From a virus (taxonomy: Duplodnaviria; Heunggongvirae; Uroviricota; Caudoviricetes): DNA of 64,000 bases. A program made the translations under genes and the position numbers. The stretch covers positions 32,001 through 96,000 of the IMG/VR virus record IMGVR_UViG_2908567220_000002. The stretch is one strand, 5' to 3'. How positions within the stretch are numbered: the stretch's first letter is position 1; the number at the start of each line of letters is the position of its first letter. The notes under the pieces were generated by a model. That model was given only the letters and a program-made list of their open reading frames with translations. It was not told the DNA's origin and did not search any database. Shown here piece after piece: positions 7,908 to 64,000 of the stretch.

Positions 7908-8388
7908 TGGTTGCCTCCTTCACAAAAATAATCCAATGTGTTTTATCGTTCTTGCCGGTGCGCTGGCTGATGATTGGTTTCGCGTCGGTTAGTGCCAATA
8001 TCTGGCGGACAGGCACTTGCGTTTCATTCCATTTAAAAATCAGAATGCCGTGTGGCCACAACACACGAAAGGCTTCTTTAAATCCCTGCCTCAAATCATC
8101 ACGCCAGGTATCTTTATTCAGCCGCCCATATTTCTTTCCCATCCAGGCGTTATCACCAACACGCTCAAGATGCGGAGGGTCGAATACAACAACCGGAAAC
8201 GATGCGTCTGCAAATGGTAATGCACGAAAATCTGCTATCAGGTCAGGGCTAATTATCAGTCGTCGTCCATCACATAATGTGTGCTCTTCCTTTCTGATAT
8301 CGCTAAATATCGCCCGGTCGTCATTCTTATCGAACCAGAACATGCGGCTGCCACAGCACATATCAAGAATGGTTGCCGGTGCACTCAC
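7894..8388 (-). CDS. putative DNA methyltransferase (small, DPPH motif)
   Basis: 164 aa; SAM-binding-like LDMCCGSR and catalytic-like VVFDPPH motifs. Confidence 0.5.
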   Translation of the reverse strand: MSAPATILDMCCGSRMFWFDKNDDRAIFSDIRKEEHTLCDGRRLIISPDLIADFRALPFADASFPVVVFDPPHLERVGDNAWMGKKYGRLNKDTWRDDLRQGFKEAFRVLWPHGILIFKWNETQVPVRQILALTDAKPIISQRTGKNDKTHWIIFVKEATSEQD

Positions 8389-8807
8389 TGCGCTACCTCC
8401 TGAAAATTACCCTGATAAAACGACAATATGCGCTGCATAACTTCGCTCTTCCGGCACTCACAGCAAATTATATTTTGGTGCCTGTCATAACGACGTATTT
8501 CTCCGTCTGGTAATGACCAGATAAGATCCGGATCAGCCACAGATGCTTTCTTCACTTTCGCCCTCGAGAGTTTTTTGCGGGCGTTTTGCCAGTCCTTACG
8601 CGCCTGCTCAGACGGGAATAACCCGTAACCAGAGTTGTATACATCGCCGCTGGCAACCAGCTCTCTTGCGAGAACGCTCATCAGATATCTTGTCGCACCT
8701 GTCTTGACTTCCAGTTGCCGTAACGTCTCACGCCCACTCTGGCGTACGAGTTCAACAACCTGTCCTTTAATTTTTTCCCGCTCTTCTTGTGTAAAAACTT
8801 TTGCCAC
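8385..8807 (-). CDS. conserved hypothetical phage protein, possible winged-helix
   Basis: 140 aa; homolog in prophage B at 55796..56218. Confidence 0.5.
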   Translation of the reverse strand: MAKVFTQEEREKIKGQVVELVRQSGRETLRQLEVKTGATRYLMSVLARELVASGDVYNSGYGLFPSEQARKDWQNARKKLSRAKVKKASVADPDLIWSLPDGEIRRYDRHQNIICCECRKSEVMQRILSFYQGNFQEVAQ

Positions 8808-8847
8808 AAGCCCTCCTGAAAATTACCTCATGACCAGAAATTAACAC

Positions 8848-9924: not shown

Positions 9925-9989
9925 CTCTTCTGATACCGAATCTTTTTACTCACGAGTTGCCGGAAGCGATTCGATATGGCTATTGTCAG

Positions 9990-10415
9990 TCAATGTACTG
10001 CCACAGCATTTCCTGCCGGGCCACCACGGTTCATCTGATTGAAACCGGCGATTGCCACTGCGACAAAATCATCAGCGTCTCTCACCAGTCGCTCCCGCGT
10101 CTCCACCAGCTCCCGAAAATAAGCTGAACTGTGGCTGCGCATTCGGGCCACCAGCAGAGGTGGCATTGCTTTTTCGATAGCTGGTAACAACGCCTGAATT
10201 TTTTTAACCGCATCAGGGGTGTCTTTCTCCACCCAGCGGAAAATTTTCTGAGTATTGCGAGCCAGGGCTTCCGGATGGCTGTCGTCATACAGTTCCGGGA
10301 ACGTCATTCCCAGCTCGAAATACGCTTTGGTAATTTTCGCAGCCGGTACTTTTTCGCCGTCCGGATGCGCCCAGGCATTCATCGCCATGCGGATGTGTTC
10401 ATGCTTGATTTTCAT
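9990..10415 (-). CDS. YdaT-like (CII-position) regulatory protein
   Basis: 141 aa, MKIKHEHIRMAMNAW...; directly downstream of cro-like gene; paralog at 58764..59189. Confidence 0.55.
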   Translation of the reverse strand: MKIKHEHIRMAMNAWAHPDGEKVPAAKITKAYFELGMTFPELYDDSHPEALARNTQKIFRWVEKDTPDAVKKIQALLPAIEKAMPPLLVARMRSHSSAYFRELVETRERLVRDADDFVAVAIAGFNQMNRGGPAGNAVAVH

Positions 10416-10666
10416 GAATCAACTCCCATCAGCTTTTTCGTAGTAGTTTTATTCCTGCCAATAGTTAAAATTGCATCGGCAGAAAATAATCCGTTTGATG
10501 CAAGAGCGATTTTTTCAGCGTAATTTGTTTCGCCGGTATATTCTGTGCGAGGCAATTTTCCGTTATCCATCCATTTATAGATTGCTCTTTGGCTGACACC
10601 ACAAACGTCGGCCACAACAGCAACGCGAACAGTTTTGATTACATCTTCAAGTGTTTTCTGGTTCAT
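10412..10666 (-). CDS. Cro/YdaS-like HTH regulator
   Basis: track ORF 10412..10738, probable start MNQKTLEDV; HTH VADVCGVSQRAIYKW; divergent from repressor. Confidence 0.6.
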   Translation of the reverse strand: MNQKTLEDVIKTVRVAVVADVCGVSQRAIYKWMDNGKLPRTEYTGETNYAEKIALASNGLFSADAILTIGRNKTTTKKLMGVDS

Positions 10667-10690
10667 ATCACCCTCACAATGTGAACTTTG

Positions 10691-10721
10691 AGTACATGCT
10701 ATAACAGAACTGACAGTACAT
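10691..10721. promoter_or_regulatory. putative right operator region (AGTACAT repeats)
   Basis: AGTACAT at 10691 and 10715 between divergent cro-like and repressor genes; same motif recurs downstream of repressor. Confidence 0.35.
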
Positions 10722-10745
10722 TCAAGAGCGAATATCATTGAACTT

Positions 10746-11165
10746 ATGGTTCATGAAGATAAAGCGCGTAAAGAGTTCGCCAGTAGGCTTGCGCTAGCCT
10801 GTGAAAACGCTGGTTATGAACAACATGGAAGGCAGGCAGAAATTGCCCGTCGAATGAAATTAACACCAAAAGCGGTTAGCAAATGGTTTAATGGCGAAAC
10901 AATTCCTCGCCGGGAGAAATTAAGGGAATTAGCAACACTAATAGGAACAACACCAACCTATCTTTTGGGAGAGGATACAGAAGAAAGTGGACAGGTACGT
11001 TTCTATCAGGAGTTAAATCCAAGACAAAAAATCATCATTGACCTTCTGGACGAGCTCCCTGACAGTGAGACAGATGAACTTTTAAAAACTCTTGAAGAGA
11101 AAAAACAGAAGTACAATGCAATTTACGAAGAGTTAGCACGAAAGAAAAAACAAAAAGCCTCTTAA
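10746..11165 (+). CDS. CI-like prophage repressor
   Basis: 139 aa; HTH QAEIARRMKLTPKAVSKWFNG; divergent from cro-like gene. Confidence 0.7.
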   Translation: MVHEDKARKEFASRLALACENAGYEQHGRQAEIARRMKLTPKAVSKWFNGETIPRREKLRELATLIGTTPTYLLGEDTEESGQVRFYQELNPRQKIIIDLLDELPDSETDELLKTLEEKKQKYNAIYEELARKKKQKAS

Positions 11166-11240
11166 ACCAGCATAAATCCGGTAGCGCCTTCCTCCGGGTT
11201 TGTGCTTCACTTTATCCCATCTCATTTTTTTACACACAAA

Positions 11241-11281
11241 ATGTACTAAAAGTACTTTACAACAATGAACGCAAAGTACAT
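11241..11281. promoter_or_regulatory. putative left operator region (ATGTACT/AGTACAT)
   Basis: ATGTACTaaaAGTAC palindrome and AGTACAT repeat downstream of repressor. Confidence 0.3.
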
Positions 11282-11459
11282 TATATGCCTGCCACCCACC
11301 CCGCCCCACAGAATGCAGGGCAATACTTCGAGTTACCAGGCAGTGGTCAGGGGGTAAGTAGCCAGCCCGAGGCGTAAGAACATGACGGCAGGGTTCAACT
11401 TTAACTATGCAGCAGGTTTTTGTTCCGCTACCCCGGCGTTAAGGGGAAATGAGGTCAAC

Positions 11460-11615
11460 ATGGATACTATCGATCTTGGCAACAACGAATCTCTGGTATA
11501 CGGCGTGTTTCCCAACCAGGACGGAACGTTCACCGCGATGACGTATGCCAAAAGCAAAACGTTTAAAACCGAATCTGGCGCGCGTCGTTGGTTGGTAAGA
11601 CATTCAGGTGAATAA
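11460..11615 (+). CDS. YdfA/YdaF-like small protein (DUF1391-like)
   Basis: 51 aa MDTIDLGNNESLVYGVFPNQDGTF...; GAGG RBS; paralog at 60240..60392. Confidence 0.55.
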   Translation: MDTIDLGNNESLVYGVFPNQDGTFTAMTYAKSKTFKTESGARRWLVRHSGE

Positions 11616-11616
11616 A

Positions 11617-11763
11617 ATGAACGAAACAGAATTAAAACACGTTATCGCTCTGCTTCTGGAGGATGCAAAACGCCTCCAGCAACTGGAACCAAATGCAGGC
11701 ACTGAAGCCCGCATCTGGCTGGCATTGTACGCTATTGAGTCAGGTCGTGATGATGAAGGTTAA
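11617..11763 (+). CDS. small hypothetical protein (48 aa)
   Basis: MNETELKHVIALLLEDAKRLQQLE...; ATG 1 nt after the upstream stop. Confidence 0.35.
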   Translation: MNETELKHVIALLLEDAKRLQQLEPNAGTEARIWLALYAIESGRDDEG

Positions 11764-12044
11764 GCATCATCTAAGTTTTTTACATAGCGCCCATTAGATT
11801 CGGTAACAAGAACACCGGGATTTTTCTTAACTTTTGAGGCCACTGATTCAGCAAGGTCAGCAACAGATTCTTTGTCTTCATTCTTGCTTGAATATATATA
11901 TTCGGCATTAGGAAGACGGTAGGTGTTCCCTAAAGAGGTTGTAATCGTTCTGGAGAATCCCTTTGCTTCCATTCGTTCATGAAGCTTATCGTAATCAGCG
12001 GAACTGGAATCGCGAAGTTCGATCCTGACTGTAAATTTTGCCAT
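11760..12044 (-). CDS. hypothetical protein
   Basis: track ORF 11760..12056; GGAGG RBS supports start at MAKFTVRIELRD. Confidence 0.45.
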   Translation of the reverse strand: MAKFTVRIELRDSSSADYDKLHERMEAKGFSRTITTSLGNTYRLPNAEYIYSSKNEDKESVADLAESVASKVKKNPGVLVTESNGRYVKNLDDA

Positions 12045-12074
12045 TTTATCCTCCATTTAGGTTCTGGGTTAGAA

Positions 12075-12330
12075 ATGGAGACCAATACGGGGCTACGTGT
12101 GGTCGTGCGCCGGACACGGATAAGAATCCGGCACTGACAGTTTACTGAAAGGATATTTCCCTGAAAAGTCAGGGCATAACACGAAAGCGTACGGCGAAGG
12201 CCTTCACCTATGAGGCTTGTCGTTAATTTCTTCGACCGTGCGCTTCCGGTTGTGGCACTCCGCGAAATGGCGCGGCGGTAAGTATGGCGGGGTTATTCCT
12301 TCCCCCGTTGAGGACACCGGGTTGTCAGGT
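12075..12330. other. conserved structured non-coding region (copy 1)
   Basis: about 250 nt with no ORF of 60 aa or more, multiple inverted repeats (GGTTGTCA...TGACAACC, CCGCGaaatggCGCGG); second copy at 60990..61310. Confidence 0.35.
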
Positions 12331-12626
12331 TGACCATACGCTTAAGTGACAACCCCGCCATAACTCATACTGCTATAGATATATGGGGACTAACCGGAGG
12401 AAAAATGATAGTTCAATGCACAGACGGGAATAATAAGCTGCTCTGGTCATACGATACCGTCAGCCAGAAACACATAATGAATATGACTTTTATAAAGGAC
12501 GGTACTCAACAAAAAATCATTACCGCCCTTGCAAGTGCATTAACTCAGGCGACAAGCCAAATTCTGCTATCTGATAACGTTAATGGAGTATCTGATATTG
12601 GCTCGATGACCGGGAGGGAGTGCTAA
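12330..12626 (+). CDS. hypothetical protein
   Basis: 98 aa ORF; overlaps 3-prime end of convergent ORF 12567..12836; lies where prophage B has dicF. Confidence 0.3.
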   Translation: MTIRLSDNPAITHTAIDIWGLTGGKMIVQCTDGNNKLLWSYDTVSQKHIMNMTFIKDGTQQKIITALASALTQATSQILLSDNVNGVSDIGSMTGREC

Positions 12627-12836
12627 TACAACATTCCAGTAACCCGAGTGGGGCACGGTAATATTGGCAGGGAATCGTTCATAGAAACCGCCGTAATAGG
12701 TAAAACGCCCGCCCCGCTTGAAAGCCTGGTAATTTGAATCATCCATTAATAAAACATTAATCTGGTGTGAACATTGAACCCTGACAAGGTCACCATCATT
12801 CATGTGTTCACGACTATGTATATGGGACATAAACAC
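12567..12836 (-). CDS. hypothetical protein
   Basis: 89 aa ORF convergent with 12330..12626. Confidence 0.3.
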   Translation of the reverse strand: MFMSHIHSREHMNDGDLVRVQCSHQINVLLMDDSNYQAFKRGGRFTYYGGFYERFPANITVPHSGYWNVVLALPPGHRANIRYSINVIR

Positions 12837-13347
12837 TCCTTTTTACTGTGGAAAGCTAAATCATATCACGGTCTATGAAGTAAAAAGTGAATTTCGTGAT
12901 GCGGTGAATGCGGCTCAGCGCACGCAGAACAGTTAAAAACACAAGTGTTATGGGTGAATCATCCGGCGTTAATTGCTAACTGGTTAACGTCACCTGGAGG
13001 CACCAGGCACCGCATCACAAAGTTCACTTAGGTGATGAAAGGTAGAGAAAATGTTGAATGTAGCTATTGAAAACCAGAACGGGTGGAATTATAGTGCACC
13101 TGCACCTCATAAAACGGGTGCCGGGCGTGGAAACCCGATGTTCACTAACGCGCATAACCGCGCTCAGGCGGTTTTTTTATGCGTAATGCACAGCCACATT
13201 CAGATTATGGTGGGACGTGCAGGGCAGCCGCAAGGCTGGCCGGGTTCGTTAGTGACCGGTATTTCCACCCCTGTACGTCTCACCACCCTTATGGTCGTGG
13301 AAAACCTTGGTGGTGAGTTAATCAAATTCACTAACGAGGCTGCTATC

Positions 13348-13902
13348 ATGGCTACTATCCCTACCCTTTCTCAACCTGACGTAACCATCGAAAATGGTCG
13401 CGCTGTCACTACGTCTGTTGCGATCGCCGAGTTCTTTGGCAAACGCCACGACAATGTTATTCAAAAAATAAAATTACTGGATTGCTCCCCTGAATTCACT
13501 GCCCTTAATTTTAAGGTGAGCGAATACACCGACTCAACCGGGCGCAAACTCCCTATGTACCAAATCACCAAAAACGGCTTCGTTTTCCTGGTGATGGGCT
13601 TCACGGGCAAAAAAGCCGCAGCTTTCAAGGAAGCCTACATCGCTGAATTCGATCGCATGGAGGCAGAGTTGTACCAGCTTAATACCACTACCACAGACAA
13701 AATAATTCCTGGTGATGGTCGCACTCTCGTTGTTCACTTCGACGAACGCGGCAATATCAAATTCACCGAAACCGTTCCTGACGGCGCTCTCGTCTGTACT
13801 CTGGATACTTTCCGCTTTTATCTGGAGAAGCAGGGGTGGACTCTTGTAAACAGGAGCGCAATTAAAAATATGACCGTCGAGCAGTTGCTGAGTATTAAAT
13901 AG
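13348..13902 (+). CDS. Rha-family phage regulatory protein
   Basis: Rha-like N-terminal motif VAIAEFFGKRHDNVIQKIK; GAGG RBS before internal Met of track ORF 13051..13902; upstream extension judged non-coding. Confidence 0.6.
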   Translation: MATIPTLSQPDVTIENGRAVTTSVAIAEFFGKRHDNVIQKIKLLDCSPEFTALNFKVSEYTDSTGRKLPMYQITKNGFVFLVMGFTGKKAAAFKEAYIAEFDRMEAELYQLNTTTTDKIIPGDGRTLVVHFDERGNIKFTETVPDGALVCTLDTFRFYLEKQGWTLVNRSAIKNMTVEQLLSIK

Positions 13903-13948
13903 TTTTCTGGAATTTTCTTAATGCGACAAATTTATTAAGGAGATAATT

Positions 13949-14170
13949 ATGATTGCTCATCACTTCGGAACTGATGATATTCCTCGTCAGTGCGTGACTC
14001 CCGGTGATTATGTTATTCATAAAGGAAGAACATATATTGCTTCGGTAAACAATATAAAAAAACACCGGCTCTATATTCGTGATTTTTCCACACAACACTG
14101 TATTAATGAAACCATGATTAAAGTCTTCCTTGATCGTGATGGTTTACCTGTAAAGGCGGAGTCGTGGTGA
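13949..14170 (+). CDS. hypothetical protein
   Basis: 73 aa with strong AAGGAG RBS. Confidence 0.45.
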
Positions 14171-14287
14171 GCTGTAATAAAATAACTACCCCAATACGAC
14201 ATTCAGTTTAATAAATACATCAGATTCGATTCTTATATGCCAGCAATGGCAGTGACTTGTTCACCCCTAAATCTGTAATGAGGTTTA

Positions 14288-16726
14288 TTGATGAGCACGA
14301 ATAAAGAAGTGTTTGCGCTATATTGCGAAGCTAAAAATGACAAGGTCAGAAAGCGTCTCGGTATTAAAGGTGGCTTTTTCTGGATCGAAGCCAAAAAACT
14401 TTCCGTTGCAGTTTCCCGCTGTATTGCCGCTATGGACGATGCTGGCTACGACGAAGATGATTTCAAAAAAACAGTTCGCGTCCATTTGCCTGTTCTAAAT
14501 GACCTGCCACCTGAAGGCGTATTTGATACTGATTTCTGTAACCGTTACGAAAAAGGTGGAGAAGATGGCATCACAATGATGCCGGTACCGTCCAGCAACA
14601 GCGATGAAAACAGTAACGCCGCTAATACTAACGTCAACGGCGAAGACATGATTGAGATTGAGGAGAATATTCTTCTGCCGGTTTCAGGTCAGCTTCTGCC
14701 TGTTAGATGGCTGGCACAGCACGGCAGCGAAAAACCTGTCACGCATGTTTCACGGGATGAACTGCGGGCATTACATAACGCACAGGAAGAAAAACTTCCC
14801 GCCGTTACCGCTCTGGCCATCTCAAATAAAGCAGTGCAACTCGAACCGCTGGAGATTCGGGATTTGTACAAACTGGTGCGGGACACTGACAAAGTTTTTC
14901 CCGCCCCCGTAAATTCAGACCTGGGACTGATGACTTCCTTCATCGAAGCATACCTGGACGCTGACTACACCAATCGCGATCTGCTTACAAAAGAGTGGAT
15001 GAAAGGAAATCATGTTTCGCGAATCAGCCGCACACCATCCGGCGCTAACGCTGGCGGCGGTATTCTTACCGATCGCGGCGAAGGTTTTGTACACGATGAT
15101 GCATCACTGGCGCGCGACGTAGCCACTGGCGTGCTGGCCCGTTCAATGGACGTGGACATTTATAACCTTCATCCGGCACACGCTAAACGCGTCGAGGAAA
15201 TTATCGCTGAAAATAAACCGCCCTTTTCTGTTTTCTTCAGCAAATTCATCACCATGCCGGGCCACAAGGATTTCTCCCGTGCCATCGTGGTTGCCTCCGT
15301 GAAAGAATCACCAGTTGGTATAGAGGCTATGCCCCACCGTGTCACCGAATACCTGAATAAAGTGCTGACTGAAACCGATCATGCCAACCCTGATCCGGAA
15401 ATCGTGGATATTGCCTGCGGTCGCTCCTCTGCCCCGATGCCGCAGCGTGTAACTGAAAAAGAAAAACATGATGAAGAAAAACCGCAACCATCTGGCGCAA
15501 TGGCAGATGAACAGGCAACGGCTGAAACAGTGGAACCGGATGCAACTGAACATCATCCGGACACGCAGCCGGTGGATGCTCAGCCACAGGTGAATTCTGT
15601 TGATGCGAAATATCAGAAACTGCGGGCAGAACTCCATGAAGCTAGGAAAAACATTTCGCCTAAAAATCCTGTCGACGCAAACAAATTACTGGCAGCCTCT
15701 CGCGGAGAATTTGTTGAAGGGATTAGTGACCCGAATGATCCGAAATGGGTTAAGGGGCTCCAGACTCGCGAGTCTTCGAACCAGAATCAACCAGAAGTGG
15801 AACAAACCAAGCCAGAATCGGGACAAAATAGCCAGGATGCACACCAAAATGAACCAAAAACGATACATCCGGAGCCAGCAGCGCAACATGCACAGAAAAA
15901 TCCCTGTAATGTTTGTGGGGAAACTGGCGGGGGCACATGCCCTGACTGTGCCTCAGTAATGGGTGACGCAACTTACCATGAGACATTCTGCGAGGAAGAT
16001 TCAGATGAATCTCAGGAAAAAGCTCCGGAGGAGATGGAAAACCCTGAACATCCGCATCCGGAAAATACTGACAGCAATCAGCATAACAATAGCGGTGATA
16101 AAACTGACAGGACGACAAATTCCTTAATTAATATGCACGGTCATCAGAAAAGAACATCCACCAGCAGAATGTGTCACCATCTGATGATCGACCTTGAAAC
16201 AATGGGAAAAAATCCTGATTCCCCGATTATCTCAATAGGTGCAATATTTTTCGATCCGCAAACCGGAGAGATGGGACCAGAATTTAATAAAACCATCGAT
16301 CTGGAAACTGCTGGCGGAGTCATTGATCGGGACGCGATCAAGTGGTGGCTGAAGCAATCACGCGAAGCGCAATCTGCCATTCTGACCGATGAAATCCCGT
16401 TAGATGATGCACTGCTGCAATTGCGGGAATTTATCGCCGAAAACTCCGGTGAATTGTTTGTTCAGGTCTGGGGAAATGGAGCCAACTTCGACAACGTGAT
16501 TTTGCGCCGTTCATATGAACGGCAGGGTATCCCCTGCCCGTGGCGCTACTACAACGATCGCGATGTACGCACAATCATTGAACTGGGAAAATCCATAGAC
16601 TTCGATGCCAGGACGCCTATTCAATTCGAAGGCATACGCCACAATGCGCTGGATGATGCCCGTCACCAGGCGAAATACGTTTCAGCAATCTGGCAAAAAC
16701 TGATCCCGAATCAGTCTGATTTTTAA
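14288..16726 (+). CDS. phage exonuclease with C-terminal DEDDh 3-prime-5-prime exonuclease domain
   Basis: 812 aa; C-terminal [13 protein letters not shown] and HNALDDA exo motifs; acidic Gln-rich linker with [15 protein letters not shown] Zn-ribbon-like motif; recE position of left operon. Confidence 0.7.
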
Positions 16727-16789
16727 TGTTCAACCCCAGTCGTCGCCCCCAGCTATAGTGGCGGCGACCATGATTAGCGAACGATACTC

Positions 16790-17038
16790 ATGGCAAGACT
16801 TATTCTGCTCACTGAGTGGGCAAAAGAGGAATTCAGCGATCCGGTCCCTACTCCGGGCACGTTAAGTAAATACGCTAAAGCCGGAATGATATTTCCTCTC
16901 CCCAAAAAAGTTGGAAGACACTGGCGAGTGGATCCGCGAGCTCGCTTTGTCGGAATGGTAAACAAGCCGGAGGTGATCGCCACAGATCACCCTGCTTTAA
17001 AGAGGATACTGGAAGATGGCACGCCCGCGAAAATATAA
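16790..17038 (+). CDS. xis: excisionase (Xis-like)
   Basis: 82 aa, lambda Xis-like pattern, overlaps start of int. Confidence 0.6.
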   Translation: MARLILLTEWAKEEFSDPVPTPGTLSKYAKAGMIFPLPKKVGRHWRVDPRARFVGMVNKPEVIATDHPALKRILEDGTPAKI

Positions 17039-18146
17039 AACCGCTGTTCCGGGATTATCTCCGTATTTTGACAAAAGAAATAACAAAGTTTACTGGCGTT
17101 ACAGGCATCCCATCACAGGTAAAAATCATGGACTCGGCAGTATTGACCAGAAACTGGCGGAAACCATTGCAGCAGAAGCGAACAGCCGTCTTGCCAGACA
17201 ACAAATGGAGCAAATGCTCAGTCTGCAGGAGAAAATTATTAGTGATACCGGCGGCGCATCAACCGTTTCCATTTTTCTGAATAATTACAGAAAAATTCAA
17301 CAGGAAAGATATGAGAACGGAGAGATCAAACTCAGCACGCTGAAGCAAAAAGCGGCTCCTCTCAGGGTGTTTGATGAACGTTTTGGAGCCAGGCCGCTAG
17401 ATGCCATAACAGTAAAAGATGTGGTATCGGTGCTGGAAGAATACAAGGCAAAGGGACATAACAGAATGGGACAAATTTTCAGGAAGGTATTGATCGATGT
17501 TTTCCGGGAGGCTCAACAAACGGGTGATGTCCCGCCAGGCTTTAACCCGGCTGAATCGGCAAAAAAACCGCAAGTGCGGATATCAAGACAGCGACTGACT
17601 TTTGATGAGTGGATGATGATTTATAACGCAGCGGAAAAGGATGGTTACTTTTTACAGCGCGGCATGCTGCTGGCACTGATGACGGGCCAGCGTCTTTCGG
17701 ATATTTGCAAAATGCAGTTTTCGGATATCCGGGATGGTTACCTTCATGTCGAACAGCAAAAAACAGGAGCCCGGATAGCCATTCCTCTGGCTCTGCGTTG
17801 CGACAAATTAAATCTTACCCTGGGTGACGTGGTGTCATCCTGTCGTGATTACATCCTTAGTCCGTGGTTATTGCACCATCATCACGCTAAGGGGATGGGT
17901 AAGCGCGGCGGGATGGTTAAACCAGCAACGTTAACAGTCGCATTTAAAAAAGCCCGGGATTCTGTGGATTACAACTGGCGTGCTAATGGCACGCCACCCT
18001 CTTTCCATGAGCAAAGATCTTTATCAGAACGATTGTTCAGAGAACAGGGAATTGATACCAAAATTTTGCTGGGCCATTCGAATCAAAAAATGACCGATGT
18101 TTACAACGATGCACGCGGTAAGGAGTGGAAAAAACTGGTCATTTGA
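17016..18146 (+). CDS. int: tyrosine-type integrase
   Basis: 376 aa; catalytic-domain motifs RLSDI..., HEQRSLSERL, LLGHSNQKMTDVY. Confidence 0.9.
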   Translation: MARPRKYKTAVPGLSPYFDKRNNKVYWRYRHPITGKNHGLGSIDQKLAETIAAEANSRLARQQMEQMLSLQEKIISDTGGASTVSIFLNNYRKIQQERYENGEIKLSTLKQKAAPLRVFDERFGARPLDAITVKDVVSVLEEYKAKGHNRMGQIFRKVLIDVFREAQQTGDVPPGFNPAESAKKPQVRISRQRLTFDEWMMIYNAAEKDGYFLQRGMLLALMTGQRLSDICKMQFSDIRDGYLHVEQQKTGARIAIPLALRCDKLNLTLGDVVSSCRDYILSPWLLHHHHAKGMGKRGGMVKPATLTVAFKKARDSVDYNWRANGTPPSFHEQRSLSERLFREQGIDTKILLGHSNQKMTDVYNDARGKEWKKLVI

Positions 18147-18200
18147 TGACCAGTTTTGCAGAAGAGTTTTGCAGAGATTTTGCAGAGAAAATTAGAAGCG

Positions 18201-18312
18201 GTATCCGGCAGAGAACATAAACACCCACGGATCCAGTCGTACCGCGTCTTTCACGGGGGTTCCATTAAATTTATAGCTGGCGGTTGTGTCGATATCCATG
18301 TACCACACTGGT
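18201..18312 (-). other. phage-borne 3-prime end of ompW (attachment core) at junction between prophage A and B
   Basis: minus-strand translation VWYMDIDTTASYKFNGTPVKDAVRLDPWVFMFSAGYRF* resembles OmpW C-terminus; no upstream ompW coding sequence (in-frame stop). Confidence 0.6.
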
Positions 18313-18854
18313 AGGTTTCAAAAAACACAATAACCAATTGTATTTGAAGCAAAAAAACAAGACTTTGAGATGTTTTTTTGTACCTTTTTTTATGCTTTTA
18401 ACTGTCTGATTTTATTGAAATCTTTTTTAGTTTTGCAGAAGGAATTTTTTACTTGATTGTAACTTTTTCGTTTTTTTGGGGCTAATTGACGCGCAATGCT
18501 GGGCGGGGAGCGCACAGCCAAAAAAACCGAAATTGACCGCTAATTACTGCCAATCATCATCGCTCTGATTGAGCGTAAATCATTCAGGTTATTCAGTTCT
18601 TCCTTCTGCTCTCGCTGACGTCAATAAATCCCATCATTGCGATCAACCTCATCCTTAACCATTGATGCGAGCAGTTCTTCCAGTTTCTGCGCTGACAGCT
18701 TTACCTGGTGATCTTCAGCATCTTCCCGGGCTATTGTGGTTCGCGCAGTGGCTGATTTTGCTGACATCACCACAGGGGGCAGACGGACCATTGAACCATG
18801 GCCTCCGGAACAAATAAGGGCAAAAATAACAACCACTATCGAAAGCTCACAAAC

Positions 18855-19052
18855 TAACCGCAGCACGTTCCTGCATACGACGTGTCTGCGGCATAATCCC
18901 AATGATTACTCCCTGACAGGATTTGCAGGCCACTCAATATCAGGTACAGTTGATGTATCAACACGATTCAACAATACCCGATATTTATTCCATGCCTCCA
19001 GCAACGATCTTTCTTCCTCCGTTGCGATTTCCAGATCTACAGCATCCTGCAG
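18855..19052. repeat. direct repeat copy 1 (tfa 3-prime end plus downstream hairpin)
   Basis: about 90 percent identical by eye to 19905..20087. Confidence 0.6.
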
Positions 19053-19175
19053 TGGCGCAATATACTCACTGAATTCCTGGATGTAGAACTGTGTGGTGAC
19101 GGTCTTCCAGCCATTCGGCTCCTGCTGTATCGAAGCATACCAGGCTATTTCAATATCGCTATGCTGCGGCAGCAT
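18906..19175 (-). pseudogene. tfa: tail fibre assembly protein Tfa, C-terminal fragment
   Basis: 89 aa ORF ending ...[28 protein letters not shown]; lacks Tfa N-terminal half. Confidence 0.55.
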
Positions 19176-19231: not shown

Positions 19232-19900
19232 ATGGTGAAATCAATGAAAAAAAACACAGATGATGGGGCTAAAATTTACACACCACTTACCCTAAAGCTT
19301 TATGACTGGTGGGTTTTGGGAGTATCAAATCGGCTTGCATGGGGATGTCCTACAAAGGAACACCTTCTTCCACACTTTCTGGAACATGTAGGTAACAACC
19401 ATCTGGATATTGGTGTTGGAACTGGGTTTTACCTTACTCACGTACCTGAGAGTAGTCTGATATCTTTAATGGATTTGAACGAAGCTAGCCTGAACGCGGC
19501 ATCTACAAGGGCTGGGGAATCAAAAATTAAACATAAAATTAGCCATGATGTTTTTGAACCTTATCCCGCGGCGTTACATGGTCAATTTGATTCCATTTCC
19601 ATGTTTTACCTTCTTCACTGCCTGCCTGGAAATATATCTACAAAAAGCTGTGTAATACGCAATGCGGCGCAGGCCTTAACTGACGATGGAACTCTATACG
19701 GAGCCACAATTCTTGGCGATGGAGTTGTGCACAATAGCTTCGGTCAAAAACTGATGCGCATTTACAATCAGAAAGGCATCTTTTCAAACACAAAAGATTC
19801 CGAAGAAGGCTTAACACATATACTCTCAGAGCATTTCGAGAATGTTAAAACCAAGGTTCAAGGTACTGTAGTAATGTTTTCCGCTTCAGGGAAAAAATAG
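19232..19900 (+). CDS. class I SAM-dependent methyltransferase
   Basis: 222 aa; motif I LDIGVGTGFY, acidic post-I LMDLNE, motif II-like DSISMFYLLHCLP; lies between duplicated tfa fragments. Confidence 0.7.
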   Translation: MVKSMKKNTDDGAKIYTPLTLKLYDWWVLGVSNRLAWGCPTKEHLLPHFLEHVGNNHLDIGVGTGFYLTHVPESSLISLMDLNEASLNAASTRAGESKIKHKISHDVFEPYPAALHGQFDSISMFYLLHCLPGNISTKSCVIRNAAQALTDDGTLYGATILGDGVVHNSFGQKLMRIYNQKGIFSNTKDSEEGLTHILSEHFENVKTKVQGTVVMFSASGKK

Positions 19901-20137: not shown

Positions 20138-23100
20138 TCAATGTTCGCTTCCTGTTAACTGCCGGACAAGTGCAACCAGTTCGCTTACCTGATTTTCCAG
20201 AGTGCTGATCCGGGTGTCTGCTGTTGCCAGATTTTCACGTAGCGTTGTGTTTTCCTCTTCCAGCGCGGTAACGCGATCATCTGTTTCACGGGCGACCTGA
20301 ACAAGTAAACCCGTCACGGCGGCGTAGTCAACATTAAGATAGCGCGTTTCTTCGCGTAGCTCGTTGCCGTCAACGGTCGGGCCTTGCAACTCTTCACCAT
20401 AATGAGTAAACGATCCCACAGCTTCTGGTATCGCCTCCATTACTTCCTGTGCAATAACGCCAGCATAAGGCATCCCGTTTTCCCTGAGCGTGTAGGTGTA
20501 TCCGTTCATTTTACGGATTGCTTTCGTCGCGTCGCTGATAACGAGAATATCGTCTTTAAGGTCGCGGTCTGATGACTGATTCAGCGTTGTGCAATTAATA
20601 GCGCCATTTACATCAAACAACTGGCCTGCTGACGTTTTTTGCGCATAAAACAGATACGCAGCAGACGTTCCAACCTCAAAAACGTTTTGTCGAGTACTGG
20701 AACCCCACACCCTGACAGAAAACGGCAGTTCTGCATTGCCTGAGTTCTGTAAAACAAAACGATTACCAGTCCCTGATTGCTTTGTAAGGGTTAAATCAAC
20801 GGTTGAGTTAACCTCATTCTTGTTGATAGTGAGCGCCTGCGCTGTAGCCCCGTTAACAGCACCTGTTTTGAGTTGAACCGCGCCGTCATTACCATTTAAC
20901 AGTATCTCAGCTCCGCTAAAGAAATTTTTTAGCGACAGCATCTTACTTACGCCGACTGATGAACCCAACGCCCACGCGAGAGAATTACCGGTGCTATCAA
21001 ACCCACGTACAAAGCAATCCATTTTGCTATAGTCTGACGTGCTTCCAAGGACATCAATTCGCCCTCCGCCAGATTTTACCGGACTAGATGTGGTTAACGA
21101 CCTGACAGTTATATCCTGATTCCATCCGGAAACAACAACCTGACTCCACGCTGTCCAGTTTCCATTAACAACAAAGCGAACGTATATACGTTTTGTGTCG
21201 CTGTTAATCAGCGTTTGCATGTTCGCATAATCTGAATCCCTAACCTTACGAGTCGACTCTACACGGAGCAAAAAGTTACCGGTTACACCGTCAGGCTTGT
21301 TGGTGATATTTGCACCACCTCCAGAGGATGGACAACTATAGTATTTAACCGCCCCGGCATCTGACCTGATGGTCAGGTTGTTAAGATCAACCTTCTGGCC
21401 GCCAATGTTTTCAGGCTCGATGGCTCCTGCTATCCCGGCACTGAACGTAGCAGCGGCTGAAAACGCTGTCGTACCTTTGAAAGCCAGTTGACCACCAATC
21501 GTTAATCCCTTGTCGAGTTTCGCTTGCGTGATCAATTTGCTGTTTTGTTTCTGATCAGGACTCTCGCCAAAAGCCAGATCCCCATTAGTATCAATTCCAA
21601 GATACTTTTGGTTCACGTTGTCTAACTTAAACCCAATGGACACATTTTCAGAAGAACCGGAACGCGTTAAAACCAACGGCGTGTGCTGTACTCCATAGAT
21701 GCTGAGCGTAGTTGCCGATGAGTCAGTGTCGGTATTTGCAATCTCAATCGTTCTGCTTTTAATTTTATACGCTACTGTGAGATCACGGACTTCAACCCTC
21801 CCGTCGTGACGAACAACAAGATCCCCTCCTGATGTCCCCCCTGCTGTCTTTGCCCTGATGCGAACTTCGCCAAGCGAATCAGTGTTAGGACCAGCATAGA
21901 TTATGCCGCGCTCTGTGTTATCGCCAGTATAAAACCGCAAAGCGGTGACTCCACTGTCTGCCCGCAGGAAGACTGACGGTGTACCTTTTTTGATTGTCAA
22001 GTCACCGGTCATTGTATCGCCGGTTTTTTTTACCTGCGCATCGTTCGTTACGTTGCCAAGTCCAACATCCGATTTCGACGGCTTGTTTGCCGAGCCGTAT
22101 AGCTCATTGACGCTAAAAGTCCCGTTGTTAAGCCGGGCATCGGTGCCGGCATAGATCTTAATCTTCGCGGTTGAGTAGTCGATATTGATCGCTGACCACG
22201 TATCGCCGCACCGCGAGAATATACCAGAACCGTGGCTATAAATGGTCGCCGTGCTTCCGGTCGGCTTATCACCGCGCCAGAAATGACCACCTTTGTCACG
22301 CAGAGCTTTTAAGATCTCTACATCGCTCATCTTGCCGTTTGTTGATATCCCGCTACCGCCAAGACCGAAAGCGCCTGTAAGCATAGCATTAGAAAGACCC
22401 AAATCTGCTTTAGTCGGCTTGTTTAACTGGTCGTAAATCCTTACAACGGGGCTTTCAACATATCCAGAAGGCGCGGCGGTTTGCTTAACAAATCCGTCTG
22501 GAATGTATAATTCCGTGCGTGCCGTCTGCGCCAGTACCGCAACCTTTGCGCCGTTGATAAATGCGCGCTGGAAGGCCCAAACCTCAATAAAGCCATCACC
22601 TTTAACCAGGCCGTAACGCATCTGGTTGTTATCGGTCAGCCCGGTTGACCCTAAGCGGCGTATACTCAGATGACGAGAAACATTATCCGCACTAAGCAAA
22701 GAAGGCATACCGCGCGCCGAGATCTCGATAAAGTCAATGTTTCCGTAAGGGGAGCCGTAGTTACCAGCGTTAGTAACCATTAGCGTTACATGGCAATTGC
22801 CGCTTCCGGGATCGGAAAGTTTCGCGATCTTTATGTAAAAAGACTCATTACCAGTAACAACGGGCCAATCGTATTGCGTCATCGGGCTGACGAGTCCCCC
22901 GACCTTGTCGAGATATTCTTTCGCCTTGTTCTCTGACGCTTTAGCGTTGGTTTCGCTGACCTTTGCTGCTGCCTCACTATTTTTCGCGTTGGTTTCTGAT
23001 TTTTTGGCTGCTGTCGCGGAGTTTGCCGATGCAGTTTGTGAGTCTGCTGCCGCCTGTGCGCTGTTATCCGCATTCGTCTCAGACGTTTTTGCGGCCTTCG

Positions 23101-23917
23101 CGGAATTTCCTGCCGCCGTTGCCGAGGAAGCTGCACTACTGGCACTTGATGATGCGTTCGTTTCTGATGATTTCGCTGCCTCTTTTGAGGCCGCCGCATC
23201 CCGGGATGAGGTGGCAGCTTCTGACGCTTTCGTGGTCGCGGTGGATGCAGAAGTGGCTGCAGATTTTTGTGACGCTGCAGCATTCGTTTCTGACGTTTTC
23301 GCCGCACCGGCACTGGTGGCTGCCGCGCTTTTTGAAGACTCTGCGGCGGCAGCACTTTTTAATGCTTCAGTGGCCTTTGTTGATGCCGTTCCTGCGCTGG
23401 AAAAAGCCTCCTGAGCCGACGTCGCGGCCTGTCCGGCTGACGTTCTGGCTGCGCGTGCTGAGTCTGCAGCATCAGTCGCATGGGTTGCCGCCTCACGGGC
23501 TGATGTGCCGGCATCGCTGGCTGACTTCTTCGCGGCTGCCGTGTTCTGTGCCACTGCGGACGCGTTACGCGCCACCTCTGCCACCATCAGTTCAAAGCGG
23601 CGCAGTGCCTCCGGACGGGCATCATCCTCCGTCATGGCACCGAGAAAATCATTCAGCGTACCCGGTTGTGAGTCTTCATACACGGTGATGGTCCCGGCAT
23701 GCGATGGCGGGAAGCCTTCCACCAACAGAATAACGCTGTACTGACCGTACTCAACGTCCATGCTGTAACGCCCTGCTTCATCCGGATTTTCAGATGCCAC
23801 CGTGTTCACCACCACCGTGGTGCTGTTACGTTTTGCTTTCAGCTGGATTGTGCAGTTCTGTACCGGTTTACCTGCACCGTCTTTCAGTACACCTGAAATC
23901 TTTACTGCCATATTCAC
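20138..23917 (-). CDS. stf: side tail fibre protein with C-terminal intramolecular chaperone (S74-like) domain
   Basis: 1259 aa; N-terminus MAVKISGVLKDGAGKPVQNCTIQLKA... matches lambda Stf; Ala/Ser-rich repeats; C-terminal DLKDDI...NGYTYTLRENG... chaperone-like region. Confidence 0.85.
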   Translation of the reverse strand: MNMAVKISGVLKDGAGKPVQNCTIQLKAKRNSTTVVVNTVASENPDEAGRYSMDVEYGQYSVILLVEGFPPSHAGTITVYEDSQPGTLNDFLGAMTEDDARPEALRRFELMVAEVARNASAVAQNTAAAKKSASDAGTSAREAATHATDAADSARAARTSAGQAATSAQEAFSSAGTASTKATEALKSAAAAESSKSAAATSAGAAKTSETNAAASQKSAATSASTATTKASEAATSSRDAAASKEAAKSSETNASSSASSAASSATAAGNSAKAAKTSETNADNSAQAAADSQTASANSATAAKKSETNAKNSEAAAKVSETNAKASENKAKEYLDKVGGLVSPMTQYDWPVVTGNESFYIKIAKLSDPGSGNCHVTLMVTNAGNYGSPYGNIDFIEISARGMPSLLSADNVSRHLSIRRLGSTGLTDNNQMRYGLVKGDGFIEVWAFQRAFINGAKVAVLAQTARTELYIPDGFVKQTAAPSGYVESPVVRIYDQLNKPTKADLGLSNAMLTGAFGLGGSGISTNGKMSDVEILKALRDKGGHFWRGDKPTGSTATIYSHGSGIFSRCGDTWSAINIDYSTAKIKIYAGTDARLNNGTFSVNELYGSANKPSKSDVGLGNVTNDAQVKKTGDTMTGDLTIKKGTPSVFLRADSGVTALRFYTGDNTERGIIYAGPNTDSLGEVRIRAKTAGGTSGGDLVVRHDGRVEVRDLTVAYKIKSRTIEIANTDTDSSATTLSIYGVQHTPLVLTRSGSSENVSIGFKLDNVNQKYLGIDTNGDLAFGESPDQKQNSKLITQAKLDKGLTIGGQLAFKGTTAFSAAATFSAGIAGAIEPENIGGQKVDLNNLTIRSDAGAVKYYSCPSSGGGANITNKPDGVTGNFLLRVESTRKVRDSDYANMQTLINSDTKRIYVRFVVNGNWTAWSQVVVSGWNQDITVRSLTTSSPVKSGGGRIDVLGSTSDYSKMDCFVRGFDSTGNSLAWALGSSVGVSKMLSLKNFFSGAEILLNGNDGAVQLKTGAVNGATAQALTINKNEVNSTVDLTLTKQSGTGNRFVLQNSGNAELPFSVRVWGSSTRQNVFEVGTSAAYLFYAQKTSAGQLFDVNGAINCTTLNQSSDRDLKDDILVISDATKAIRKMNGYTYTLRENGMPYAGVIAQEVMEAIPEAVGSFTHYGEELQGPTVDGNELREETRYLNVDYAAVTGLLVQVARETDDRVTALEEENTTLRENLATADTRISTLENQVSELVALVRQLTGSEH

Positions 23918-58763: not shown

Positions 58764-59189
58764 TTAGTGCATCACCACAGCATTCCCTGCCGGGCCGCCG
58801 CGATTCATCTGGTCATACAAAACAACCGCTGACGCAACAAAATCATCGACATCCTTCACCAGCCGATCCCTCCGTTCGACGATCTCACGGTAATATTCAG
58901 AACTGTGGCTGCGCATACGGGCCACCAGCAAAGGCGGCATCGCCTTTTCGATCGCCGGTAACAGAGCCTGCATTTTTTCAACAGCATCAGGGGTGTCTTT
59001 CTCTACCCAGCGGAAAATTTTCTGGGTATTGCGAGCCAGGGCTTCCGGATGGCTGTCGTCATACAGTTCTGGGAACGTCATACCCAACTCAAAATAAGCC
59101 TGGGTTATTCCAGCTGCTGGAACTTTTTCGCCATCAGGACGCGCCCAGGCATTCATCGCCATGCGGATGTGTTCATGCTTGATTTTCAT
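58764..59189 (-). CDS. YdaT-like (CII-position) regulatory protein (copy 2)
   Basis: 141 aa, about 85 percent identical to 9990..10415. Confidence 0.55.
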   Translation of the reverse strand: MKIKHEHIRMAMNAWARPDGEKVPAAGITQAYFELGMTFPELYDDSHPEALARNTQKIFRWVEKDTPDAVEKMQALLPAIEKAMPPLLVARMRSHSSEYYREIVERRDRLVKDVDDFVASAVVLYDQMNRGGPAGNAVVMH

Positions 59190-59454
59190 GAATCAAGCTC
59201 CTAGAAAGTGGTTGTGTTAACGTTTTGGTATCTTCCAGCTCGGGCCAAATATTCATCCAATCAAAAGGCCTTAGTTGCTGACGTGTAACTTCACCATTAC
59301 TGGCTCGCTCAATAAGGACACATAACGATGCCCCTAACACTTGACCTTTACTCAATGCCTTTCTTAGATAACCGATGCTGGTACCACACTCGCATGCAAA
59401 CATACGCTGTTCATCTGACGAAAGAGAATTGAGAAATATTCTTAATTCTTCCAT
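59173..59454 (-). CDS. Cro-like HTH regulator
   Basis: 93 aa; HTH-like CGTSIGYLRKALSKGQV; divergent from repressor. Confidence 0.5.
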   Translation of the reverse strand: MEELRIFLNSLSSDEQRMFACECGTSIGYLRKALSKGQVLGASLCVLIERASNGEVTRQQLRPFDWMNIWPELEDTKTLTQPLSRSLIHENQA

Positions 59455-59483
59455 AGCTACTCCTTAGTAAACACAGCAAAGAA

Positions 59484-59519
59484 TACCCACAGGTAAACAA
59501 AAGTCAATACCCACAGGTT
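59484..59519. promoter_or_regulatory. putative right operators (TACCCACAGGT repeats)
   Basis: TACCCACAGGTA at 59484 and TACCCACAGGTT at 59508 between divergent cro-like and repressor genes. Confidence 0.35.
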
Positions 59520-59554
59520 GTTTACCTTGCGGTAATCGCATCTATTATTTACCT

Positions 59555-59974
59555 ATGGACAAATATGAATTTAGACGACAGCAACTCATCAAAATTCGTG
59601 ATGAGAAATGCGATGGTAAAGCGGTTAACGTGGCCAGAAAGATCGGGCGCGAGCCTTCTTATGTATCAAGAATGTTGTACCCAGAGGGGAAAAAGGGAAA
59701 AAAACGGATCGCTGATGATATGGTGGAGATTATCGAAGAGTCCTTTGGGTTACCCCGGGGATGGATGGATGGTATCGTTTCATCATCAACGAACACAGCC
59801 TCCAGTTATGAAACAAGGGTTCTAACGCCACGACAACGTATTTTTTTAGATCTCTTAGACGAACTGCCAGAAAGTGAAGCGGATAAATTATTAAAAACTC
59901 TTGAAGAGAAAAAACAGTATTACAATATGATCTACGAAGAAATCCGTAAAAAGAAAGCACAAAACGCATCATAG
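59555..59974 (+). CDS. CI-like prophage repressor (different specificity from prophage A)
   Basis: 139 aa; N-terminal DNA-binding region differs from prophage A repressor, C-terminal region conserved. Confidence 0.7.
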   Translation: MDKYEFRRQQLIKIRDEKCDGKAVNVARKIGREPSYVSRMLYPEGKKGKKRIADDMVEIIEESFGLPRGWMDGIVSSSTNTASSYETRVLTPRQRIFLDLLDELPESEADKLLKTLEEKKQYYNMIYEEIRKKKAQNAS

Positions 59975-62008: not shown

Positions 62009-64000
62009 ATGAGTAAAGTCTTTATTTGCGCCGCCATTCCGGACGAACAGGCAATAAAGGAAGAAGGTGCCGTCGCTGTAGCCACTGCCATTGAAGCCGG
62101 TGATGAACGTCGCGCCCGCGCAAAATTTCACTGGCAATTCCTGGAGCATTATCCGGCTGCTCAGGACTGCGCTTATAAATTTCTTGTCTGCGAGGATAAA
62201 CCCGGTATACCCCGCCCTGCCCTCGATTCCTGGGATGCTGAATATATGCAGGAAAACCGCTGGGATGAGGAGTCTGCTTCCTTTGTCCCGGTTGAGACTG
62301 AATCCGATCCGATGAACGTCACTTTTGACAAGCTGGCCCCTGAAGTACAGAACGCTGTCATGGTTAAGTTCGACACATGTGAAAACATCACCGTTGATAT
62401 GGTTATTAGCGCACAGGAATTGTTGCAGGAAGACATGGCAACATTCGACGGACATATCGTTGAGGCATTGATGAAAATGCCAGAAGTTAACGCCATGTAT
62501 CCGGAGCTTAAGCTGCATGCCATCGGGTGGGTTAAGCATAAATGTAAGCCTGGTGCCAAATGGCCCGAAATTCAGGCAGAGATGCGCATCTGGAAAAAAC
62601 GTCGCGAAGGTGAACGCAAGGAAACCGGAAAATACACGTCTGTTGTTGATCTCGCCCGCGCCAGAACCAATCAACAGCACAGTGAAAATTCAACAGGAAA
62701 AATCAGCCCGGTCATTGCTGCCATTCATCGCGAATACAAGCAGACATGGAAAACACTGGATGACGAACTGGCCTACGCTCTCTGGCCTGGTGATGTGGAT
62801 GCCGGAAACATTGACGGCAGCATCCATCGCTGGGCAAAAAATGAAGTTATCGACAACGACCGCGAAGACTGGAAGCGTATCTCGGCATCAATGCGCAAAC
62901 AGCCTGATGCCCTTCGCTACGACCGCCAGACTATTTTTGGCCTTGTCCGTGAACGTCCGATCGACATTCACAAAGACCCTGTGGCACTGAACAAATACAT
63001 TACTGAATACCTGACTACAAAGGGCGTGTTTGAAGATGAAGGAAGAAATCAGAGCGCAACTGATACTCTCTCGTCGCCAGTACCAGAAACTGATGCAGTG
63101 GAAACGGCAATTCCGGGCAACGAAAAAACCGAATGCAAAGTGGAAGTCGAACCATCTGTAGAGCGTGAGGGGCCGTTCTACTTCCTCTTCACCGACAAGG
63201 ATGGCGAAAAATACGGTCGCGCAAACAAACTTTCTGGTCTGGAAAAAGCACTAGCCTTGGGAGCTACGGAAATCACAAAAGAGGAATACTTCGCACGTAA
63301 AAACGGCACGTACTCAGGTTCACAACAAAATACTGGTGCATCTGACACGACCGCACAACCAGAGCCGGTAAAAGTTACCGCTGACGAAGTAAACAAAATT
63401 ATGCAGGCAGCCAATATCAGCCAGCCTGACGCCGATAAGTTGCTTGCTGCCTCTCGCGGAGAATTTGTTGCAGGGATTAGCGACCCGAATGATCCGAAAT
63501 GGGTAAAGGGGATTGAAACCCGCGATTCTGTAAACCAGAACCAGCAAGAATCGGAACAGAACGACCAGAAAGCGGAACAAAACAGCCCAAATACGCAACA
63601 AAACGAGCCAGAAACGAAACAACCTGAGCCAGTAGCGCAACAGGAACCGGAAAAAGTCTGCACCGCCTGCGGTCAAAGCGGTGGCGGCAACTGCCCTGAT
63701 TGTGGCGCGGTGATGGGTGACGCAACATACCAGGAAACATTCGATGAAGAGAATCAGGTTGAAGTTCAGGAAAATGATCCGAAGGAAATGGAAGGCGCTG
63801 AACATCCACACAAGGAGAATGCTGGTAGCGCTCAGGATCACGCCAGCGATAGTGAAACTGGCGAGACGGCAGATCCCTTAATTACGATGAACGGTCATCA
63901 CGTTATCACATCCACCAGCAGAATGTGTCACCATCTGATGATCGACCTTGAAACAATGGGAAAAAATCCTGATTCCCCGATTATCTCAATAGGTGCAATA
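62009..64000 (+). CDS. phage exonuclease (copy 2), 3-prime partial at window edge
   Basis: open frame from ATG 62009 to window end, not in ORF track; C-terminal portion matches 14288..16726 including LLAASRGEF...[10 protein letters not shown] and [24 protein letters not shown]. Confidence 0.65.
   Translation, partial: MSKVFICAAIPDEQAIKEEGAVAVATAIEAGDERRARAKFHWQFLEHYPAAQDCAYKFLVCEDKPGIPRPALDSWDAEYMQENRWDEESASFVPVETESDPMNVTFDKLAPEVQNAVMVKFDTCENITVDMVISAQELLQEDMATFDGHIVEALMKMPEVNAMYPELKLHAIGWVKHKCKPGAKWPEIQAEMRIWKKRREGERKETGKYTSVVDLARARTNQQHSENSTGKISPVIAAIHREYKQTWKTLDDELAYALWPGDVDAGNIDGSIHRWAKNEVIDNDREDWKRISASMRKQPDALRYDRQTIFGLVRERPIDIHKDPVALNKYITEYLTTKGVFEDEGRNQSATDTLSSPVPETDAVETAIPGNEKTECKVEVEPSVEREGPFYFLFTDKDGEKYGRANKLSGLEKALALGATEITKEEYFARKNGTYSGSQQNTGASDTTAQPEPVKVTADEVNKIMQAANISQPDADKLLAASRGEFVAGISDPNDPKWVKGIETRDSVNQNQQESEQNDQKAEQNSPNTQQNEPETKQPEPVAQQEPEKVCTACGQSGGGNCPDCGAVMGDATYQETFDEENQVEVQENDPKEMEGAEHPHKENAGSAQDHASDSETGETADPLITMNGHHVITSTSRMCHHLMIDLETMGKNPDSPIISIGAI

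Follow-up and report, generated by a model that had tools for sequence, protein, structure and literature searches.

In phage lambda, the attachment site attP has the arrangement P1-H1-P2-X-F-H2-C-O-C′-H′-P′1-P′2-P′3, and tandem lysogens have an internal attP. Phages 21 and e14, found at the 3′ end of icd, carry a diverged replacement for that 3′ end beside int, such that integration regenerates a hybrid gene and displaces the original end as a stub (Campbell 1992). The described elements closest to the locus reported here are the PPompW prophages of Shiga toxin-producing (STEC) and enteropathogenic (EPEC) Escherichia coli, which were named, and their 121-bp attL and attR sites defined, by Nakamura et al. 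(2021, PLoS Pathog, PMC8112680; GenBank LC567818-LC567841). That paper assigns a prophage to PPompW when its integrase gene is more than 90% identical to the PPompW integrase gene, and reports that four O157:H7 strains carry a second, tandem PPompW and that PPompW-derived clusters occur at mlrA and ydfJ; tandem PPompW arrays are already known from this source. The present analysis concerns a window of 64,000 nucleotides (positions 32,001 to 96,000 of the Caudoviricetes record IMGVR_UViG_2908567220_000002; coordinates below are those of the window), which corresponds to 165570-229569 of the 4.92 Mb E. coli chromosome CP024978.1 (GCA_002803805.2). Positions 18190-18310 of the window very probably represent the internal attachment (att) site of two tandem, same-orientation lambda-like PPompW prophages, here called A (left) and B (right), in the 3′ end of ompW.

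The array is of the PPompW type: window 17000-18310 shares 92.0% DNA identity with the intE-att regions of LC567818-LC567841, above the 90% that defines PPompW, a 121-bp att lies beside int, and full-length ompW is located on the int side of the last prophage. Likenesses to the PPompWs of STEC and EPEC include the integrase family, an att duplication of 121 bp that lies 44 bp from the stop codon of int, the ompW target, a gene order running from a tail-side cargo locus through the early region to xis and int, and the tandem occupancy reported in O157:H7. In contrast, the cargo slot of prophage B holds a methyltransferase gene where STEC PPompWs hold type III secretion system effector genes, the 21-bp attB-in-PP behind the prophage-in-prophage mechanism is absent from the window, and prophages A and B pair different immunity regions with an identical int module in which one int is a nonsense allele; the available sections of PMC8112680 do not describe these features.

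Prophage A ends with an excisionase gene (xis, 16790..17038, plus strand; Pfam Exc, 30.3 bits) and a gene encoding a lambda-type tyrosine integrase of 376 aa (int, 17016..18146, plus strand; Pfam Arm-DNA-bind_1 and Phage_integrase). PF09003, PF00589 and PF07825 all score above their cut-offs, representing the arm-binding and catalytic domains of the integrase (Int) and the excisionase, and the Int A protein is 96% identical to the Int of the ompW prophage in E. coli O111:H21 15A. Convergent with int A, on the minus strand at 18192..18308, are the last 38 codons and stop codon of ompW without the N-terminal part of the gene, identified by Pfam OmpW and comparison with K-12. An earlier note on this DNA, made from the sequence alone, had placed an OmpW-like C-terminus just past int of prophage A, and 45 bp do separate the end of int A from the stop codon of the fragment. 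The translation of 18308..18195 is the OmpW C-terminal peptide VWYMDIDTTASYKFNGTPVKDAVRLDPWVFMFSAGYRF, followed by TAA at 18194..18192. Against Pfam OmpW, for which the cut-off is 24, this 38-aa peptide reaches 42.8 bits over profile positions 158-195 of 195, and it is identical to the K-12 OmpW C-terminus at 30/38 positions, with the differences clustered mid-peptide (ASYKFNGTPVKDA versus ANYKLGGAQQHDS in K-12). The alignment whose failure the earlier note had named as grounds for refutation therefore recovers a relationship to ompW in protein (30/38) and DNA (90/121). No complete open reading frame (ORF) for the 8-stranded OmpW barrel (approximately 212 aa) is present at the position of the fragment, where profile positions 158-195 alone are represented. 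The upstream frame is closed by a stop three codons before the fragment (..CVF*NLP/VWY.., the slash marking the start of the fragment), and, as had been described, what precedes the fragment is this stop codon and an AT-rich arm leading to the tail fiber end of prophage B, not the rest of ompW. The sequence at 18192..18308 is an ompW-derived gene fragment, and the 38-codon stub is an att scar, not a decayed paralogue; such stubs are routinely marked as partial OmpW genes by the Prokaryotic Genome Annotation Pipeline (PGAP).

The 121-bp att of PPompW-type prophages, a phage-borne diverged copy of the ompW 3′ end, occurs once in the window (18190..18310) and starts 44 bp from the int stop, as does the 121-bp sequence annotated as "duplication due to insertion" in LC567822.1. 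It is identical to the K-12 ompW 3′ end at 90/121 positions, to other phage-borne copies at 100-102/121 (100/121 for the int-side copy of LC567822.1) and to the copy that closes prophage B on the right at 121/121. Within it, a 22-bp block, TCGATATCCATGTACCACACTG (18289..18310), is identical in attB, attL-type, attR-type and attP-type junctions and serves as the core; the window holds a single copy, at 18289. The joint was aligned across six sequences, namely the window, the int-ompW junction and the yciE-side junction of 15A (a single lysogen at ompW), the empty site of K-12, GPEC403-625, and the O157:H7 strain EC4115. To the left of the 22-bp block the window matches the int-side junctions, with the int 3′ end, three TTTTGCAGA repeats and the diverged ompW 3′ copy; to the right it matches the yciE-side junctions of single lysogens, with an AT-rich phage arm. 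In this core-anchored comparison the partner switches directly after the 22-bp block in all recombinant joints, and the variable bases between the stop codon and the block stay with the int side in every joint, indicating that strand exchange takes place inside the 22-bp block.

The aligned joints, with those of LC567822 and of the source genome, fall into an attB class (host, host att, host) in K-12; an attL-type class (host, host att, phage P arm) in 15A, GPEC403 and LC567822; an attR-type class (phage P′, phage att, host ompW body) in 15A, GPEC403, LC567822 and CP024978.1; and an attP-type class (phage P′, phage att, phage P arm) in the window, GPEC403 and EC4115. The attP-like junction proposed in the earlier note was borne out by this comparison with the K-12 attB and both ends of single lysogens, which gives the structure P′-core-P. 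The AT-rich P arm of prophage B (18311..18480) has 26% GC, compared to 50% for the window, and is 98% identical to the yciE-side arm of the 15A single lysogen.

The far end of prophage B can be read in CP024978.1. Window 7016-28146 matches this chromosome at 100%, as does window 45796-64000, which forms part of CP024978.1 211365-231787; the latter segment adds 2,218 nt past the right end of the window. Within this extension, the last part of the B exonuclease gene is followed by xis B, by int B (at window-equivalent 64770-65900) and by ompW. The called product of this ompW is 212 aa, and the last 90 codons were read: the final 38 are those of the window fragment, and upstream of them the gene runs into host-type sequence (..DWLVNMS/VWYMDID.., the slash marking the start of the shared 38 codons). 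The right border of prophage B thus consists of its own xis and int followed by host ompW, with no prophage A sequence; yciC itself falls outside this segment. The intact ompW anticipated beyond prophage B is found in CP024978.1 as a hybrid, directly past xis and int. With a single attP-type joint (P′-core-P) between two same-orientation prophages, xis-int-ompW past B, and distinct A and B genomes, the earlier proposal of two lambdoid prophages in tandem at the ompW 3′ end holds. Several gene calls on the CP024978.1 record are shorter or split relative to intact ORFs in identical DNA (for example, 84 versus 139 aa for a repressor-like protein and 67 versus 124 aa for rusA), and the calls look unreliable; the analysis relied on the DNA.

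Prophages A (1-18146) and B (approximately 49000-64000) contain collinear blocks with 75-95% identity, separated by unrelated segments. The common blocks are rusA/DUF968, the hok region, DUF977, YdaT and exonuclease, in keeping with the shared rusA, DUF968, hok, YdaT and exonuclease modules already listed in the earlier note, and the YdaT proteins of A and B are 86% identical. A and B are distinct phage genomes and not a duplication of one genome. The immunity region of prophage A (10412..11165) consists of a minus-strand cro-like gene and an HTH_3 repressor gene (10746..11165), with three operator-like repeats (TGAACT..GTWCAT) at 10682-10755, while that of prophage B (59173..59974) contains a minus-strand YdaS-like cro gene and a 139-aa repressor-like gene, with two operator-like AATACCCACAGGT repeats at 59482-59518 plus partial inverted copies. 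The repressor-like proteins of A and B, each of 139 aa, share 39% identity and resemble each other in the C-terminal part only. No relationship was found between the cro-like proteins of A and B, and no DNA similarity is detectable across A 10427-11048 and B 59202-59857, which span cro, the operators and the repressor N-terminus. Different repressors and operator-like repeats are thus present, in line with the earlier note, in a pattern classic for different immunity specificity, making it plausible that A and B are heteroimmune.

The int end of the two prophages is nearly invariant. A direct repeat of 2,157 bp comprising the exonuclease 3′ end, xis, int, the P′ arm and the 121-bp att occupies 16154..18310 (copy 1) and begins again at 63908..64000 (copy 2), from where it runs beyond the window to window-equivalent 66064 in CP024978.1; the pair flanks prophage B. 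The copies differ by one mismatch (17202, C in A versus T in B), and xis A and xis B are identical. Left of 16154 the exonuclease genes of A and B are at once approximately 25% divergent, so that the identity boundary is abrupt and lies inside the exonuclease gene. This sharp boundary points to recent recombination or gene conversion, or to a shared module acquired before integration. The single mismatch turns codon 63 of int B into TAG (Q63*), while xis B is intact. In this assembly, prophage B lacks a full-length Int of its own and adjoins prophage A, which encodes an otherwise identical Int; excision of B should therefore depend on Int A. The near-identical exo′-xis-int-att module in both prophages and the Q63* allele of int B are new for this instance. 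The combination of different immunity, an identical int module and an int nonsense allele is ordinary for mosaic lambdoid prophages and modestly interesting. A more speculative reading, regarded as rather unlikely, is that the identity of the 2,157-bp module reflects active gene conversion between tandem neighbors, with B consequently dependent on Int A and its excision coupled to derepression of the other immunity; if true, tying B excision to A immunity would amount to a built-in hierarchy within the tandem array.

The sequences flanking the core contain further candidate recombination elements. Three direct copies of TTTTGCAGA(G/A) lie between the int stop and the ompW stop (18154..18187, plus strand) in the P′ arm, and a fourth TTTTGCAGA copy is located at 18431-18439, inside the P arm of prophage B. 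Four of the five copies in the window are thus in the att region, compared to 1.16 copies expected in the whole window, and the copies are conserved in 15A, GPEC403 and EC4115. An imperfect inverted repeat, GTGTCGAT-ATCCATG-TACCACAC, at 18286-18308 overlaps the 22-bp block. Likenesses to lambda are the Arm-DNA-binding N-domain of Int, the three tandem repeats in the int-proximal arm with one in the distal arm, and the AT-rich distal arm; however, the arm motif differs in sequence, the candidate P′ sites are separated from the core by approximately 100 bp of coding-derived sequence, and there is no exact consensus for integration host factor (IHF). The locus would resemble phage 21 and e14 in carrying a replacement target 3′ end next to int, while the gene targeted and the lineage of the integrase are different. 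A perfect 12-nt inverted repeat across the int stop codon, followed by TTTT (18131..18157, plus strand), overlaps the first arm-type repeat and is a possible int terminator; this hairpin was not called by a consensus terminator scan.

A model for the array can be drawn from lambda-type site-specific recombination and from phages that insert into gene 3′ ends, such as phage 21 and e14 at icd. The phage attP would carry, beside int, a diverged version, 119 bp long, of the final 38 codons and stop codon of ompW. Guided by arm-type sites and host bending proteins, Int would exchange strands in the 22-bp block at the upstream end of this copy, which would splice the phage-borne terminus onto host ompW to give a full-length hybrid OmpW and leave the original host ompW 3′ end behind as a stub on the other side of the prophage. 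A second phage of the same specificity would recombine with either prophage-host junction, producing an internal attP-type joint in which the left phage P′ arm with its three TTTTGCAGA candidates is followed by the ompW 3′ end borne by the phage, then by the core and finally by the right phage's AT-rich P arm. Excision could remove A alone, B alone or both, and in all three cases Int A would now be required. The joint structures, the hybrid ompW beyond B and the divergence of the immunity regions are shown by the sequences, whereas the precise positions of the cuts, the function of the arm sites and the order and route of integration, whether mediated by Int or by RecA via the 2.16-kb module, are inferred.

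The same joint occurs in other genomes. The exact Int A protein is present in many assemblies, and among the matches listed, seven of eight loci adjoin a full 212-aa ompW followed by yciC-yciB-yciA-tonB; these seven match the window at 98-100% identity as far as 18310, where the alignment ends, and the eighth is CP024978.1 itself. In the annotated E. coli collection, which does not include CP024978.1, no full-length match to the joint exceeds 95.3% identity. A search of 5,426 complete E. coli genomes with a 791-nt junction query found a joint covering ≥80% of the query in at least 17 and some part of it in approximately 1,730, and the contiguous int-stub-arm sequence is also found in a separately deposited 31.5-kb phage record, CP025907.1. 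A complete annotated array is present in GPEC403-625 (NZ_CM142769.1), in the order yciE, stub, prophage, int, stub, prophage, int, ompW, yciC. The internal joint of this array shares 94-95% identity with that of the window; however, its two prophages are near-identical and encode the same immunity proteins, whereas immunity, replication, cargo and late genes all differ between A and B. In EC4115 (NC_011353.1 2927938-2989000), the joint of int, ompW stub and P arm is followed by a prophage that has a different integrase at its far end, at mlrA (yehV). This arrangement implies a large rearrangement between prophages and is probably the "prophage cluster at mlrA" case of PMC8112680.

Apparent tandems at ompW can have other origins, and for Stx2a phages PMC8112680 shows that such arrangements can be prophage-in-prophage. 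Insertion of B into a secondary attB carried inside A is hardly credible here and was rejected, since the 21-bp attB-in-PP_1 (GTCATGCAGTTAAAGTGGCGG) has no match in the window with up to three mismatches, and the borders of B are a PPompW attP-type joint on the left and its own xis and int with host ompW, free of A sequence, on the right. The same right flank led to rejection of the idea that the B module derives from a phage with another integrase; B-type modules for replication and exonuclease are indeed found together with other integrases in two loci (L032 and L033), and the right-hand prophage of EC4115 ends at mlrA. It is also quite improbable that A is a deletion remnant, consisting of an early region and int, beside a single functional prophage B, with the joint as a relic. 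The window displays only the early region, Q-like region and int of A, and in EC4115 the joint survives a rearrangement in which the right-hand prophage ends at mlrA. However, the 18 kb of A in the window contain intact ORFs for replication, immunity, exonuclease, xis and int, and in the closest relative of A (L024) the sequence goes on into genes for methylase, lysis and terminase, suggesting that A is probably full length; even with a truncated A, the joint would remain an attP-type tandem junction.

The 2.16-kb identical repeat bears on two further explanations. Identical repeats of more than 2 kb are places where assemblies are classically misjoined, and the CP024978.1 gene calls are irregular, yet an assembly artefact in which prophages were misjoined across the repeat is highly unlikely: this type of joint recurs in at least 17 complete genomes and in a separate phage record, a swap across the repeat would give the same kinds of junction, and CP024978.1 is a finished chromosome. 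Formation of the array by RecA recombination, either of a circular phage through the identical module or by module-by-module replacement in a one-phage dilysogen, is a possible but less likely route. It accords with the near-perfect 2,157-bp repeat and its abrupt boundary inside the exonuclease gene, with the strong mosaicism of the lambdoid modules in the window, and with GPEC403-625, where two near-identical tandem prophages at ompW share the same protein accessions. The product would, however, be the same as that of Int-mediated tandem integration, the base-precise att joint is as expected for Int, and the identical module is equally explicable by later gene conversion; given the repeat, sequence does not distinguish the Int- and RecA-mediated routes. 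Several points weigh against tandem PPompW integration at an internal att as set out above. The suggested 7-bp overlap region, ATCCATG, is read from the inverted repeat, and the TTTTGCAGA copies are candidate arm-type Int sites, both predicted from sequence alone; a consensus scan of the arms found no exact IHF consensus and 1-mismatch sites only. Both the completeness of A, with its left end over 30 kb to the left of the window, and a third att copy expected at that end (yciE, host ompW stub, P arm) are extrapolated from relatives. The int-att identity of A and B could reflect gene conversion or homogenization during assembly polishing, and, with identical modules on both sides, the junction is not demonstrable as a hybrid of two different attPs.

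The main value of the joint is for annotation, with the stub marking the exact boundary of two prophages for which automated callers may report a single element of approximately 95 kb. The ompW locus is a recognized hotspot for lambdoid and effector-carrying prophages in pathogenic E. coli, and correct delimitation therefore helps prophage typing. An identical int module with one nonsense allele provides a small example of excision functions shared by neighboring prophages, and homologous recombination between the paired 2.16-kb direct repeats could lead to deletion or amplification of an entire prophage.

Beyond its P arm, the tail-side end of prophage B begins with a decayed DUF4376-like pseudogene and tail-fiber-assembly remnants on the minus strand (18540..19175), recognized from PGAP annotation of homologous loci and including a Caudo_TAP remnant identified by Pfam (18906..19175, minus strand). 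These are followed by the cargo gene, which encodes a class I S-adenosylmethionine-dependent methyltransferase (19232..19900, plus strand; Pfam and homologous loci), and by the tail fiber gene of 1,259 codons (20138..23917, minus strand; Pfam phage_tail_N to Peptidase_S74). Between the terminase and lysis genes of B, two convergent overlapping genes (43825-45454) have homologues annotated by PGAP as "beta family protein" and "sce7726 family protein" and match PADLOC PD-Lambda-2_C/beta (E 4e-32) and cll (E 3e-31), making this region a candidate defense island. A RosmerTA-like pair is also found in B on the minus strand (52090-53824), between the hok region and the DUF968/rusA block, with RmrA (helix-turn-helix and Peptidase_M78; PADLOC E 6e-105) and RmrT (E 5e-25).

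In prophage A, a Q-like DUF1133 gene is followed by a minus-strand pair at 40-1853, comprising a 426-aa AAA_15-type ATPase (PADLOC AbiLi, E 1e-25, with weaker AriA and mad3 matches) and a translationally coupled 177-aa protein for which no family match was found. The pair, which recurs across many different lambdoid backbones, is a candidate AbiL-like defense cassette. On the plus strand at 4837-6331, a Ser/Thr kinase gene (PADLOC mad6, PD-T4-6 and Stk2; E down to 1e-37) and, after it, a gene for a PP2C-like phosphatase form a candidate kinase-based phage-exclusion module. The 177-aa protein, DicB and the 320-aa replication protein of the window are each found in hundreds to thousands of assemblies.

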